A program made the translations under genes and the position numbers. From assembly GCF_053078305.1 (NCBI RefSeq), contig NZ_CP166879.1: a stretch of DNA of 64,000 nucleotides; one strand, given 5' to 3'. The notes below the pieces were generated by a model. The model was not told the DNA's origin and searched no databases. It saw nothing but the letters and a program-made list of their open reading frames with translations. This document shows, piece after piece, positions 14,440 to 20,268 of this stretch (within the stretch, counting starts at the first letter, position 1; each line of letters begins with the position of its first letter).

Positions 14440-16151
14440 TGAGCGAAAAACATCCAGGGCCTTTAGTGGTCGAAGGAAAACTGACAGACGCCGAGCGCAT
14501 GAAGCTTGAAAGCAACTACCTGCGCGGCACCATTGCGGAAGATTTAAACGACGGTCTGACCGGCGGCTTTAAGGGCGACAACTTCCTGCTGATCCGCTTC
14601 CACGGCATGTATCAGCAGGATGACCGCGACATCCGCGCCGAACGTGCTGAACAGAAGCTGGAGCCGCGCCACGCGATGCTGTTGCGCTGCCGTCTGCCGG
14701 GTGGGGTGATTACCACTAAACAGTGGCAGGCGATAGACAAATTTGCCGGTGAAAACACCATCTATGGCAGCATTCGCCTGACCAACCGCCAGACGTTTCA
14801 GTTCCACGGCATTCTGAAAAAGAACGTCAAACCGGTGCACCAGATGCTGCACTCGGTTGGTCTTGATGCGCTGGCGACCGCTAACGACATGAACCGTAAC
14901 GTACTCTGCACCTCGAACCCTTACGAGTCGCAGCTACACGCGGAAGCGTATGAATGGGCGAAGAAAATCTCTGAACATCTGCTGCCGCGTACCCGCGCGT
15001 ATGCGGAGATCTGGCTCGATCAGGAAAAAGTCGCCACCACTGATGAAGAACCGATCCTCGGCCAGACCTACCTGCCGCGTAAATTCAAAACCACGGTAGT
15101 GATCCCGCCACAGAACGATATCGATCTGCACGCCAACGACATGAACTTCGTGGCGATCGCCGAAAACGGCAAGCTGGTGGGCTTTAACCTGTTGGTGGGC
15201 GGTGGGCTTTCCATCGAACACGGCAACAAGAAAACCTACGCCCGCACCGCGAGTGAGTTTGGCTATCTGCCGCTAGAGCATACGCTAGCGGTGGCGGAAG
15301 CCGTCGTGACAACTCAGCGTGACTGGGGTAACCGAACCGATCGTAAAAATGCCAAAACCAAATACACGCTGGAGCGCGTGGGGGTTGAGACGTTTAAAGC
15401 GGAAGTGGAGCGTCGCGCGGGGATCAAATTTGAACCGATCCGTCCGTATGAGTTCACCGGACGCGGAGATCGTATTGGCTGGGTTAAGGGCATTGATGAT
15501 AACTGGCACCTGACGCTGTTTATCGAAAATGGTCGCATCCTTGATTATCCGGGGCGTCCGCTGAAAACCGGCCTGCTGGAGATCGCGAAGATCCACAAAG
15601 GTGATTTCCGCATTACGGCGAACCAGAATCTGATCATCGCCGGTGTGCCGGAAAGCGAGAAAGCGAAGATCGAGAAGATCGCCAAAGAGAGCGGGTTAAT
15701 GAATGCCGTCACGCCGCAGCGTGAAAACTCAATGGCCTGCGTCTCGTTTCCGACTTGCCCGCTGGCGATGGCGGAAGCGGAGCGTTTCCTACCGTCTTTT
15801 ATCGACAACATCGATAATTTAATGGCGAAACATGGTGTTAGCGATGAGTATATCGTGATGCGTGTAACAGGCTGCCCGAACGGTTGTGGTCGCGCGATGC
15901 TGGCGGAAGTGGGCCTGGTGGGTAAAGCGCCGGGTCGCTACAACCTGCATCTTGGCGGCAACCGTATTGGGACACGTATCCCACGGATGTATAAAGAAAA
16001 CATCACCGAGCCGGAAATCCTGGCGTCGCTTGATGAACTGATAGGGCGCTGGGCGAAAGAGCGCGAAGCGGGTGAAGGCTTCGGCGACTTTACGGTGCGT
16101 GCGGGCATCATTCGCCCGGTGCTCGATCCGGCGCGCGATTTGTGGGATTAA
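14439..16151 (+). CDS. cysI: Sulfite reductase hemoprotein beta component
   Basis: 570-aa ORF; start overlaps the cysJ stop; siroheme/4Fe-4S Cys motifs. Confidence 0.95.
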
Positions 16152-16166
16152 CCATCAGCCCGGTCT

Positions 16167-16203
16167 TGTAGGCCTGATAAGACGCGTGAGCGTCGCATCA
16201 GGC
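16167..16203. repeat. REP element
   Basis: TGTAGGCCTGATAAGACGCGTGAGCGTCGCATCAGGC between cysI and cysH. Confidence 0.8.
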
Positions 16204-16224
16204 AAGGCAAACAGTGAGGAATCT

Positions 16225-16959
16225 ATGCCCAAACTCGATCTAAACGCCCTGAACGAACTGCCGAAGGTAGATCGCATTCTGGCGCTGGCAGAAACTAACG
16301 CCCAACTGGAAAAACTGGACGCTGAAGGCCGCGTAGCCTGGGCGCTGGATAATCTGCCCGGTGAATATGTGCTTTCTTCCAGCTTCGGCATTCAGGCGGC
16401 GGTGAGCCTGCATCTGGTGAATCAGATTCGCCCGGATATTCCAGTGATCCTCACCGATACCGGTTACTTGTTCCCGGAAACCTACCGCTTTATTGACGAG
16501 TTAACGGACAAACTCAAGCTCAACCTGAAAGTGTACCGTGCTACCGAAAGCGCAGCCTGGCAGGAAGCACGCTACGGAAAACTGTGGGAACAGGGCGTTG
16601 AAGGCATTGAAAAGTACAATGACATCAACAAAGTCGAACCGATGAACCGGGCGCTGAAAGAACTTAACGCGCAAACGTGGTTTGCTGGCCTGCGCCGCGA
16701 ACAATCCGGCAGCCGCGCCAATTTACCGGTGCTGGCAATTCAGCGTGGCGTATTTAAAGTGCTGCCGATTATCGACTGGGATAACCGAACTATTTATCAG
16801 TACCTGCAAAAACATGGCCTTAAATATCACCCATTATGGGATGAAGGATATTTATCGGTTGGTGATACCCATACAACCCGTAAATGGGAACCCGGCATGG
16901 CTGAAGAAGAAACGCGTTTCTTTGGCTTAAAAAGGGAATGTGGGTTACACGAAGGGTAA
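16225..16959 (+). CDS. cysH: Phosphoadenosine phosphosulfate (PAPS) reductase
   Basis: 244 aa from ATG 16225 ([14 protein letters not shown]...); C-terminal ECGLH motif. Confidence 0.95.
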
Positions 16960-17223
16960 ATATTGCCGGATAAATTAAACGCCTCTGTCAGAAATGATGG
17001 GGGCGTTTTTATTTTGCGAGCAGCATTCCTGATTTTAAACGTGAACGCCGCTGGAAGAATTAACAGGTATAGAATGGTGTTGGGTGCTTGAGGCTGTCTG
17101 GCGTTAAGCATTCGCGAGGTTCCAGATGGACAAAAGCCCCAGGCGATATTTCTATCAACCTGAGGCCAGCGTTCGAACCTAAGCAATTCGAATGTTAGTC
17201 TCTTCTTTGCAGGGAGGCAAGAC

Positions 17224-17376
17224 ATGCTGACAAAATATGCCCTTGTGGCAATCATCGTACTGTGTTGTACAGTACTGGGATTCACGCTGATGGTAGGCGA
17301 CTCGTTGTGTGAGTTGAGTATCAGAGAACGTGGTATGGAGTTTAAGGCTGTTCTCGCTTACGAATCGAAGAAGTAG
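17224..17376 (+). CDS. Hok/Gef-family type I toxin (50 aa), intact
   Basis: Translation [50 protein letters not shown]: hydrophobic N-terminal helix, conserved SLCE and AYES motifs of the Hok family; GGAGG 9 nt upstream of ATG. Below the track's 60-aa cutoff. Confidence 0.85.
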
Positions 17377-17381
17377 CCACC

Positions 17382-17403
17382 ACGCGGGGGTAAAACCCCG
17401 CGT
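17382..17403 (+). terminator. GC-rich hairpin directly after the hok-like ORF (mRNA 3' structure or terminator)
   Basis: ACGCGGGGG-TAAAA-CCCCGCGT perfect 8-bp stem; the following T-tract is weak. Confidence 0.4.
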
Positions 17404-17568
17404 ATTGAATTGTGATGGTTTGGTCTCCTGCACCCTTTTTTAAATTTATATTTTTTATGTGAATATATTGTCTCTATTTATTATTATGAATTTCAAATGA
17501 AAATCATAAATTTATTCACAATATAAATGTTTTATTGGCTGATATATATCACAGATAATTTTTAAAAT

Positions 17569-20268
17569 ATGCGTAAATATCCTTTAAGTTTACTGAAGGA
17601 TAAAAATATTGTGACTTTCTTTGATTTCTGGGGAAAAACCCGACGCGACGAGAAAGAAGGGGGTGACGACTATCACCTTCTTTGCTGGCATTCGCTGGAT
17701 GTGGCCGCGATGGGCTATTTAATGGTTAAAAGAAATTGCTTCGGGCTGGCTGATTATTTTCGTCAATTAGGGATTTCTGACAAGGAACAGGCGGCTCAAT
17801 TTTTCGCCTGGTTGTTGTGCTGGCACGATATTGGAAAATTTGCCCGCTCATTTCAGCAACTTTACCTGCACCCACAACTCAAGGTTCTGGAAGGCGCAAG
17901 AAAGAATTACGAAAAGATCTCTCATTCAACGCTGGGCTACTGGTTGTGGCATCATTATTTAAGTGAATGCGAAGAATTGCTTCCTGCCTCTTCACTCTCT
18001 ACTCGCAAACTTAAACGTGTAATAGCGATGTGGATGCCCATGACTACCGGGCATCATGGTCGGCCCCCTGACCGTATTGATGAACTGGATAATTTTCTGC
18101 CTGAAGACAAAGCTGCCGCACGAGATTTTCTCCTTGAAATCAAGTCACTGTTTCCGCTCATAGAGATTCCCACATTCTGGGATGATGACGAGGGCGTTGA
18201 ACTTTTAAAACAACTTTCCTGGTATATCTCTGCAACAGTCGTACTCGCAGACTGGACGGGTTCGTCAACGCGATTTTTTCCACGCGTCGCACAGACAATG
18301 AATATTAAAGATTACTGGCAGAAAACTTTAGTTCAGGCTCAAAACGCCTTAACCGTCTTTCCTCCAAAAGCAGAAACCGCACCTTTCACCGGAATTAATA
18401 CGCTGTTTCCTTTTATTGAGCACCCGACACCATTACAGCAAAAGGTACTGGATCTGGATATCAGCCAGCCAGGGCCACAGTTATTTATTCTGGAAGATGT
18501 GACTGGCGCAGGTAAAACAGAAGCGGCGCTTATCCTGGCGCACAGGTTGATGGCTGAGAATAAAGCTCAGGGTTTGTTTTTTGGCCTGCCAACAATGGCA
18601 ACGGCCAATGCCATGTACGATCGGCTGGTCAAAACCTGGCTTGCTTTCTTTTCGCCAGAATCCCGCCCCAGCCTGGTGCTGGCACACAGCGCCCGTACAT
18701 TAATGGAACGCTTTAATGAATCACTCTGGTCCGGTGATTTAGTCGGGTCAGAAGAACCGGATGAACAAGCGTTCAGTCAAGGATGTGCAGCCTGGTTTGC
18801 CGACAGTAACAAGAAGGCTTTACTGGCTGAAATTGGCGTCGGCACGCTGGATCAGGCGATGATGGCAGTGATGCCGTTTAAACATAATAATCTGCGGCTT
18901 CTGGGGTTGAGTAACAAAATCCTGCTGGCTGATGAGATCCACGCCTGTGACGCTTACATGTCGTACATTCTTGAAGGGTTGATTGAGCGACAGGTGCGTG
19001 GCGGAAACAGCGTCATTTTGCTTTCTGCTACGTTATCTCAACAGCAGCGCGACAAACTTGTCGCCGCCTTTGCGCGTGGCACAGAGGGCCAGCAAGAAGC
19101 TCCGTTCCTGGAAAAGGATGATTACCCCTGGCTGACGCATGTCACGAAATCCGATGTGCATTCGCACCGGGTAGCGACGCGCAAAGACGTTGAGCGTAGC
19201 GTGAGCGTGGGTTGGCTTCATAGCGAACAAGAATGTATTGCGCGTATCGAATCAGCGGTAAGTCAGGGGAAATGCATCGCCTGGATCCGGAATTCTGTCG
19301 ATGACGCTATTAAGGTTTATCGTCAGTTACTTGCCCGCGGCGTCATTCCTGCTTCCAGCCTTTCACTTTTTCATAGCCGCTTTGCTTTTAGCGATCGCCA
19401 GCGAATTGAAACGGAAACGCTGGCACGCTTTGGTAAAAATTGTAGTTTAAAAAGATCATCTCAAGTCATTGTTTGTACACAAGTAATTGAGCAAAGTGTG
19501 GATATTGACCTGGACGAAATGATCTCCGACCTGGCCCCCATTGATTTGCTGATCCAGCGAGCGGGGCGATTACAACGGCATATTCGTGATATTAATGGTC
19601 AGTTAAAACGTGATGGAAAAGACGAGCGTTCCCCTCCTGAATTGCTGATTCTGGCCCCCGTCTGGGACGACTCTCCGGGTGACGAATGGTTTGGTAGTGC
19701 GATGCGTAACAGCGCATATGTCTACCCCGATCATGGGCGAATCTGGCTGACGCAGCGAGTATTGCGTGAGCAAGGCGCTATTCAGATGCCACACGCAGCC
19801 CGGCTTCTTATTGAATCCGTCTACGGTGAGGACGTGGTAATGCCGGAAGGATTTGCCCGCAGCGAGCAGGAGCAAGTGGGCAAATATTACTGCGATCGCG
19901 CAATGGCTAAAAAGTTTATGCTGAACTTCAGGCCCGGCTATGCCGCCAATATCAACGATTACCTCCCGGAAAAGCTGTCGACACGTCTGGCTGAAGAGTC
20001 TGTTTCCCTGTGGCTGGCTACCTGTATTGACGGTGTGGTGAAGCCTTATGCCAGCGGTGCTCACGCATGGGAAATGAGCGTTGCCAGAGTGCGTCGAAGC
20101 TGGTGGAAAAAACATCGGGATGAATTTTCTTTACTGGAAGGGGAAGCGTTCAGGCAGTGGTGCATTGAACAACGGCAAGATCCGGAGATGGCAAACGTGA
20201 TTTTAGTCACCGATGACGAAAGCTGCGGGTATTCGGCTACGGAAGGATTGATTGGCAAGGTTGATTGA
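17569..20268 (+). CDS. cas3: Cas3 helicase-nuclease (type I-E)
   Basis: 899-aa ORF; N-terminal HD domain region, DExH helicase motifs (GAGKTEAAL, DEIH). Confidence 0.95.
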   Translation: MRKYPLSLLKDKNIVTFFDFWGKTRRDEKEGGDDYHLLCWHSLDVAAMGYLMVKRNCFGLADYFRQLGISDKEQAAQFFAWLLCWHDIGKFARSFQQLYLHPQLKVLEGARKNYEKISHSTLGYWLWHHYLSECEELLPASSLSTRKLKRVIAMWMPMTTGHHGRPPDRIDELDNFLPEDKAAARDFLLEIKSLFPLIEIPTFWDDDEGVELLKQLSWYISATVVLADWTGSSTRFFPRVAQTMNIKDYWQKTLVQAQNALTVFPPKAETAPFTGINTLFPFIEHPTPLQQKVLDLDISQPGPQLFILEDVTGAGKTEAALILAHRLMAENKAQGLFFGLPTMATANAMYDRLVKTWLAFFSPESRPSLVLAHSARTLMERFNESLWSGDLVGSEEPDEQAFSQGCAAWFADSNKKALLAEIGVGTLDQAMMAVMPFKHNNLRLLGLSNKILLADEIHACDAYMSYILEGLIERQVRGGNSVILLSATLSQQQRDKLVAAFARGTEGQQEAPFLEKDDYPWLTHVTKSDVHSHRVATRKDVERSVSVGWLHSEQECIARIESAVSQGKCIAWIRNSVDDAIKVYRQLLARGVIPASSLSLFHSRFAFSDRQRIETETLARFGKNCSLKRSSQVIVCTQVIEQSVDIDLDEMISDLAPIDLLIQRAGRLQRHIRDINGQLKRDGKDERSPPELLILAPVWDDSPGDEWFGSAMRNSAYVYPDHGRIWLTQRVLREQGAIQMPHAARLLIESVYGEDVVMPEGFARSEQEQVGKYYCDRAMAKKFMLNFRPGYAANINDYLPEKLSTRLAEESVSLWLATCIDGVVKPYASGAHAWEMSVARVRRSWWKKHRDEFSLLEGEAFRQWCIEQRQDPEMANVILVTDDESCGYSATEGLIGKVD

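Follow-up and report, generated by a model that had tools for sequence, protein, structure and literature searches.

Antisense control exerted through a leader open reading frame has its textbook example in the hok/sok system, for which nearly all of the evidence has come from plasmid R1. In the R1 locus (parB) the leader frame, mok, starts with an ATG located 8 nt after a GAGG and at offset -58 from the hok ATG, covers 70 codons, overlaps most of hok and has its start under the Sok RNA. Translation of mok in R1 is needed only up to the hok start, and R1 hok depends on mok in spite of its good Shine-Dalgarno (SD) sequence (PMC9841398); the strong SD of the hok gene described below therefore proves nothing in this respect.

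The locus studied here shares with the K-12 pairs mokC/hokC and mokB/hokB a chromosomal hok leader, the GAGG and hairpin architecture and an antisense Sok. The mokC ATG is found at -57, in frame with hokC (69 aa), and the mokB ATG at -58, out of frame with hokB (55 aa); both have canonical SD spacing and starts inside the Sok-complementary region, neither of which applies to the frame described below. The closest paralog is K-12 hokE/sokE, with a toxin of the same subfamily (MLTKYAL...) and likewise without a canonical mok ATG. According to a recent survey, Mok frames are hard to define in the homologs (bioRxiv 10.1101/2025.08.07.668861). In the accessible literature no description of a mok was found for hokX or hokE, and searches for mokE/hokE and for ribosome profiling gave unrelated papers.

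The hokX/sokX locus and its short upstream frame

The stretch of DNA analysed (the window, 64,000 nt of contig NZ_CP166879.1) carries between cysH (16072-16959) and cas3 (17569-20268) the known hokX/sokX type I toxin-antitoxin locus of E. coli; in the literature this cysH-adjacent module is called hok/sokX, and K-12 keeps only its sokX (PMC12736100). The marks of a type I locus are present, namely a small membrane toxin of the Hok/Gef kind and a structured hok leader, recognised by Rfam and supported by covariation. The toxin gene (hokX; 17224-17376, plus strand, 50 aa) begins at the ATG that the first-pass annotation had assigned to it, is annotated in RefSeq and encodes a protein matching Pfam PF01848 HOK_GEF with E = 5.7e-10; in E. 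coli genomes it appears as Hok/Gef family protein, WP_000956458.1. Its SD, GGGAGG (17212-17217, plus strand), was read from the sequence 6 nt before the ATG, and the GGAGG part is nearly invariant in 52 aligned loci.

The hok mRNA would extend from 17082 to 17450 on the plus strand, as judged from the Rfam match and the minimum free energy (MFE) fold, its ends being placed by homology to R1. The tac element GGGTGCTTGAGGC (17082-17094) stands at its 5' end, the fbi element GGTCTCCTGCACCC (17422-17435), with a T-run after it, at its 3' end, and a GC-rich stem-loop, CGCGGGGGTAAAACCCCGCG (17383-17402, plus strand), is seen 3' of hok in the MFE folds. The leader was matched by Rfam RF01794 at 17082-17239 on the hok strand (111.7 bits, gathering score 59). 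The family bears the name 'sok antitoxin'; its 157 positions align to the sense strand of hok, over the entire leader, and not to the antisense RNA of about 59 nt on the opposite strand. The GC-rich stem-loop is an insertion site of an IS186/IS421-family element, at the junction of GCGGGGGTAAAACCC and ATAAGCGCTAACTTAAGGGTTG; the same site is used in the hokX allele of E. coli F8111-1SC3 (locus L066 of the comparison below), in K-12 hokE (L002) and in K-12 hokC (L003), where the insertion cuts off the 3' end with fbi, and in many E. coli records the homology stops at the same point (query 1-439).

On the leader, on the same strand and inside the RF01794 match, a frame of 12 codons starts at ATG 17192-17194 and runs into the hok start (17192-17230 with its TGA), a candidate vestigial or minimal mok that we refer to as the uORF. 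Its existence, as reported in the first-pass annotation, was confirmed. The stop had been placed at 17226-17228; the TGA is present, 2 nt further on, at 17228-17230, and the overlap with the hok ATG that had been described does exist, in the form of the heptamer ATGCTGA at 17224-17230. The remark that the frame lacks a clear SD was also borne out, since none was found in the 18 nt upstream of ATG 17192 (cgaacctaagcaattcga). The nearest GAGG (17162-17165, plus strand) stands 26 nt from this ATG, and not at the 7-8 nt at which a mok has its own SD. The mok SD has its homolog in that GAGG, which shares its alignment columns with the GAGG ahead of the annotated mokB and mokC starts and of the R1 mok start, and G.GGC at this site is invariant in 52 of 52 aligned loci. 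In the column of the canonical mok ATG, 7 nt after the GAGG, the window has TCG (17173-17175, plus strand), the start codon having been lost in this lineage, and no near-cognate start could be read in the window at canonical spacing after the GAGG.

The analogy with mok drawn earlier thus holds for the position: as in R1, an upstream frame of the hok leader comes after a GAGG, which is paired to a complementary box further downstream, and crosses the hok initiation region. The two differ in that the ATG of the window stands at -32, 26 nt from the GAGG and 8 nt outside the Sok complement, and the stop falls 1 nt after the hok ATG. The coupling to hok translation that had been proposed along with the analogy is possible.

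The arrangement by itself is weak as an observation, being little above what chance would give. When the 60 nt preceding hok were shuffled 5000 times with their dinucleotides preserved, 16% of the shuffles had an ORF that began with ATG and reached the hok start, and 5% had one that ended out of frame within -3 to +6, so that any significance must come from context and comparison.

Another ORF, of 18 codons, occupies 17126-17182 on the plus strand, with a good SD, GAGG (17116-17119), at 6-nt spacing and a TAA stop at 17180-17182. All of it falls in the stretch complementary to Sok (17126-17184), and 10 nt separate its end from the uORF ATG. ATG 17126 is confined to a near-identical Escherichia/Pseudocitrobacter hokX clade, other relatives having AGAAAG or AGATAG, and this ORF was rejected as the real mok, its ATG being unconserved outside that one clade.

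Conservation across hokE/hokX-type loci

A scan of one genome per species gave 56 hokE/hokX-type loci from Escherichia, Pseudocitrobacter, Kluyvera, Klebsiella, Citrobacter, Enterobacter and others; 55 loci with a leader, including the window and K-12 hokE, were compared, and 52 loci were aligned. One intact hokX-type ORF, that of Escherichia albertii NBRC 107761 (L017), has an upstream region without hok-leader similarity, with neither the GAGG hairpin nor a Sok region, and its contig ends 121 nt upstream of the ORF.

An ATG in the 3' arm of the leader hairpin, at the place of the uORF start, was found in 49 of the 55 loci, and the frame is open up to the hok ATG in 48 of these 49. The check by conservation in orthologous loci that the first-pass annotation had proposed gives a mixed result: most loci have the ATG and the open frame, but the phase relative to hok varies, and ATA variants and a premature stop occur. 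Thirty loci have the ATG at -32, in frame +1, with a stop 1 base after the hok ATG (TGA in 24, TAA in 6). Thirteen have it at -33 and five, K-12 hokE among them, at -36, both in frame with hok, and in a single locus it stands at -34, in the third frame, with a stop at +86. The exception to the open frame is the -33 locus of Yokenella (L055), with an in-frame TAG at -18. In K-12 hokE the distance from the annotated sokE 5' end to the ATG beyond it is 8 nt, as in the window, and a spacer longer by 4 nt puts it in frame with the toxin (MVVPSSHGGNIN-MLTKY...), without an ATGCTGA-type termination; no mokE is annotated. As an analogy, the varying phase is compatible with the R1 data, according to which only translation up to the hok start matters (PMC9841398).

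A canonical ATG 7 nt after the GAGG was found in eight loci (L022, L023, L026, L027, L039, L041, L042 and L048), in a column that is also ATG in mokB, mokC and R1. In Enterobacter sp. ENT03 (L022) and Kluyvera genomosp. 1 (L023), which have ATG where the window has TCG, this start opens the frame of the uORF and gives an 18-codon mok with the same last 12 codons and the same ATGCTGA stop overlapping the hok ATG. In the other six the canonical mok is in frame with hok, and the 3'-arm ATG is retained in all of them in another frame. By alignment, then, relatives have a real short mok frame of which the uORF represents the 3' two-thirds and the phase of which to hok is not conserved.

Conservation of the stop was considered as evidence for the uORF and discarded as unspecific. 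ATGCT[GA]A is present in 30 of 30 loci where the frame uses it, and it is kept equally where the frame is in another phase and does not (22 of 25). The codon concerned, hok Leu2, is CTG in 43 loci and CTA in 9, and never CTC or CTT, while 33% of the other Leu codons end in C or T; a third base restricted to purines also keeps the pairing with U17196 (G-U or A-U) in the alternative hairpin described below.

Six loci (L031, L032, L035, L036, L045, L061), belonging to the Klebsiella oxytoca complex, one Enterobacter and one Pseudocitrobacter copy, have ATA instead of the 3'-arm ATG and also lack the canonical mok ATG. Their hok genes show a dN/dS of 0.05-0.17 at a dS of 0.28-0.9, such low values indicating that Hok has long been maintained without a 3'-arm ATG. 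In these loci a 6-codon ATG frame (MEATRC) is found at -14, starting inside the hok SD (gcATGgagg) and having the same ATGCTGA end; it is probably accidental, to judge from the N of GCANGGAGG, which varies across loci. Several species have two or three hokE/hokX-type copies per genome with differing leaders, carrying a canonical mok ATG, a 3'-arm ATG only, or ATA (Pseudocitrobacter L013-L015, L019, L021, L025, L061 and L064; Klebsiella L027/L032, L031/L041, L035/L042 and L036/L048).

Selection on the toxin itself was found to be purifying irrespective of the leader type, with a hok dN/dS of 0.15 where the canonical mok ATG is missing (45 loci) and of 0.12 where it is present (8 loci). As hok is thus maintained in the lack of a canonical mok start, something must drive its translation. 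The leader is carried by 5398 of 5426 complete E. coli genomes, and 90% of surveyed uropathogenic strains have both hok and sokX (PMC12736100).

The ATG is at -32 in all six E. coli allele representatives; each of them ends the frame with TGA or TAA, and their Hok proteins are identical. Within an 86-nt stretch nearly all differences among these alleles (L066-L071) fall at 17166-17186, a part of the Sok-target hairpin (5' arm and loop) that corresponds to the Sok 5' end (CCTAAGCAA, CCCAAACAA and CGTAGCAA); the part from the uORF to hok is otherwise identical, apart from G or A at 17191, just 5' of the uORF ATG, and CTG or CTA at Leu2. The differences may reflect a divergence of Sok-target recognition between paralogs. 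In K-12 (L001, L008) the homology ends exactly at the G of the hok ATG (window position 17226): the deletion has removed the toxin gene and spared the leader, sokX and the uORF start, and the uORF frame then enters unrelated sequence.

The predicted Sok promoter, leader folding and the uORF ATG

The annotated K-12 sokX (b4701) maps to 17184->17126, on the minus strand, with an identity of 57/59, and the SokX RNA of the window was assigned by this homology a 5' end at 17184 and a 3' end at about 17126. Its fold consists of a 5' tail and a GC-rich hairpin, which is followed by UUUUGU and is terminator-like. With the 5' end at 17184, ATGTTA at the uORF start becomes the complement of a -10 box, TAACAT (17192-17197, minus strand), situated 7 nt upstream of the annotated Sok 5' end and containing the uORF start codon. 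The matching -35 box would be TTGCCT (17215-17220, minus strand), separated by a 17-nt spacer, overlapping the hok SD and placed from the mapped Sok 5' end; on the plus strand it reads AGGCAA. A promoter scan did not call this promoter, which scored 8/12 at a threshold of 9/12, and the assignment consequently rests on the annotated 5' end of K-12 sokX. The same promoter geometry is found at K-12 sokE/hokE. A17192, T17193, T17196 and A17197, which together make a TANNAT pattern, are invariant in the 52 loci, and so is AGGCAA. Sok is thus a predicted cis-encoded antisense RNA with a putative promoter of its own.

The uORF start also takes part in the folding of the leader. The Sok-target hairpin (17162-17202, plus strand; -17.1 kcal/mol; loop CCUAAGCAA at 17178-17186) is formed by the arm with the SD homolog and the dcb arm, and in it the uORF AUG pairs with C17170-U17172, G17194 being opposite C17170. 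Across the 52 loci 89% of the cells are paired, six pairs have changed on both sides and 52 cells covary, a covariation score that was reached by 0 of 500 shuffles; the hairpin also appears in the centroid structure of the 3'-truncated mRNA. The letters of the ATG are accounted for by the putative -10 box together with this pairing, so its conservation is no evidence for coding. G17194 deserves separate mention. It is G in 46 of 52 loci, where a -10 consensus would favour the complement of T, and its pair with C17170 shows no covariation, while the neighbouring pairs covary; kept against the promoter consensus and without covariation, this base gives a hint of an additional constraint such as use as a start codon. 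ATG 17192 lies 8 nt outside the Sok-complementary stretch 17126-17184 and within the 30S footprint, whereas the mokB and mokC starts lie 6-10 nt inside theirs.

An alternative hairpin (17193-17232, plus strand; -11.2 kcal/mol), seen in the MFE folds, brings the start regions of the uORF and of hok together by pairing and makes the hok SD inaccessible. It and the hairpin at 17162-17202 are mutually exclusive; across the loci it is 92.5% pairable, in a sequence too conserved for covariation. In the MFE fold of 17082-17450 (z = -3.65) the 5' GGGUGC (17082-17087) pairs with the 3' GCACCC (17430-17435), so that the pairing of the tac and fbi ends expected to lock the full-length mRNA is present in the prediction. 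Both the full-length fold with its paired ends and the 3'-shortened centroid with the hairpin agree with the R1 model of PMC9841398. An RNAalifold consensus of the leader alone was set aside, giving a mixed structure that joins tac with the dcb region, and the named structures were tested in its place.

In the processed mRNA the predicted probability of being unpaired, a quantity derived from thermodynamic models only, was 0.13 for the uORF AUG 17192, 0.46 for the hok SD and 0.55 for the hok AUG. The same calculation gave 0.71 for the mok AUG and 0.00 for the hok AUG of R1, taken as a control. These model values fit the known mok dependence of R1, and the window shows the opposite pattern. Across the loci the predicted median was 0.09 for the 3'-arm ATG against 0.375 for the canonical mok ATGs. 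Whether or not a locus had a canonical mok ATG made no difference to the predicted openness of its hok region (0.385 with it, 0.44 without).

Possible roles of the upstream frame

We consider the anatomy of the locus, the pattern of conservation, the covariation of the hairpin and the purifying selection on hok to be established, and infer where ribosomes start. The explanation that we prefer, with a probability of roughly one half, is that the uORF is a vestigial mini-mok, whose ATG is maintained by the constraints of Sok promoter and hairpin, hok being translated mainly through refolding of the mRNA and from its own SD, with Sok acting on the 5' arm and the alternative hairpin closing hok. 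The uORF would be the leftover 3' part of the hokX/sokX mok leader frame, in which the canonical mok start has turned into TCG in the lineage and ATG 17192 is the only upstream ATG left. This ATG would have been kept mainly because its complement, CAT, ends the Sok -10 box of the opposite strand and because it belongs to the hairpin pairs, not for use as a start codon, and since it has no SD and is buried in a stem of -17 kcal/mol, it may be a weak initiation site at best. Translation of hok would start chiefly from its own strong SD (GGGAGG, 6 nt) when in the processed mRNA the 17198-17202 arm is held by the GAGGC arm. Sok would pair with 17126-17184 and create an RNase III substrate, and this pairing might at the same time free the 3' arm, upon which the hok initiation region could be closed by the alternative hairpin 17193-17232.

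It is less probable, although a substantial part of our expectation goes to it, that the uORF works as a functional minimal mok. Ribosomes would then start at AUG 17192 when the Sok-target hairpin breathes or opens, read the 12 codons through the structure around the hok SD, terminate at UGA 17228-17230 and re-initiate at AUG 17224; the Sok duplex, ending 8 nt upstream of the AUG and inside the 30S footprint, would block this start and trigger cleavage. Such a function would agree with the frame and stop shared with the 18-codon mok of L022 and L023, which has both SD and ATG, with R1 needing mok only as far as the hok initiation region (PMC9841398), and with the maintenance of hok in loci without a canonical mok start. 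The alternative hairpin encloses both the uORF and the hok SD, so a translating ribosome would open it. The wide occurrence of the ATG and of the open frame, including all six sampled E. coli alleles, and the conserved G17194 point in the same direction, but each conserved letter is explained otherwise, the conserved stop is not specific to the frame and the phase to hok varies. Furthermore the AUG has no SD and is predicted to be buried, and the ATA variants as well as the variant with a premature stop persist with a conserved hok. A role of the uORF in the switching on of the toxin is plausible. We regard it as improbable that the missing SD is replaced in the hokE/hokX subfamily by a 'split site', with the GAGG (17162-17165) and AUG 17192 of a 12-codon mok brought to an effective spacing of 7 nt by an upper hairpin (17173-17191). 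This upper hairpin starts exactly at the site of the lost canonical ATG. If the split site were true, ATGTTA/TAACAT would be leader start codon, hairpin stem and antitoxin -10 box at once, and pairing of Sok with the loop and the 5' arm would destroy the bridge.

Two further explanations appear very unlikely. Translation of the ORF at ATG 17126 might unwind the 5' arm of the hairpin and pass ribosomes on to AUG 17192, 10 nt downstream, and then to hok; this ORF does have an SD and is situated entirely in the Sok-complementary stretch, but its ATG is present only in the Escherichia/Pseudocitrobacter hokX clade, and in both predicted folds the segment of the leader that it occupies, belonging to the ucb/tac stem, is paired. 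Equally remote is a decaying locus, with an unexpressed hok and a functionless uORF. Tests of post-segregational killing and of rifampicin activation were not passed by chromosomal hok loci, as cited in bioRxiv 10.1101/2025.08.07.668861, K-12 has lost hokX and some strains carry the IS insertion. Decay is hardly reconciled with an identical Hok in the sampled E. coli alleles, a dN/dS of 0.15 across genera, a covarying leader and the presence of the leader, and of hok together with sokX, in the large majority of the E. coli genomes and surveyed uropathogenic strains.

The uORF of hokX is a small variation on a known theme. A canonical mok start is absent from 46 of 54 sampled hokE/hokX-type chromosomal loci, in which hok is still under purifying selection, and the comparison makes a narrow question testable, namely whether loci of this type use a minimal leader frame without an SD or are independent of mok. 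The general picture would be unchanged by the answer, which would bear on the annotation of type I toxin loci and on the view of how Sok acts.
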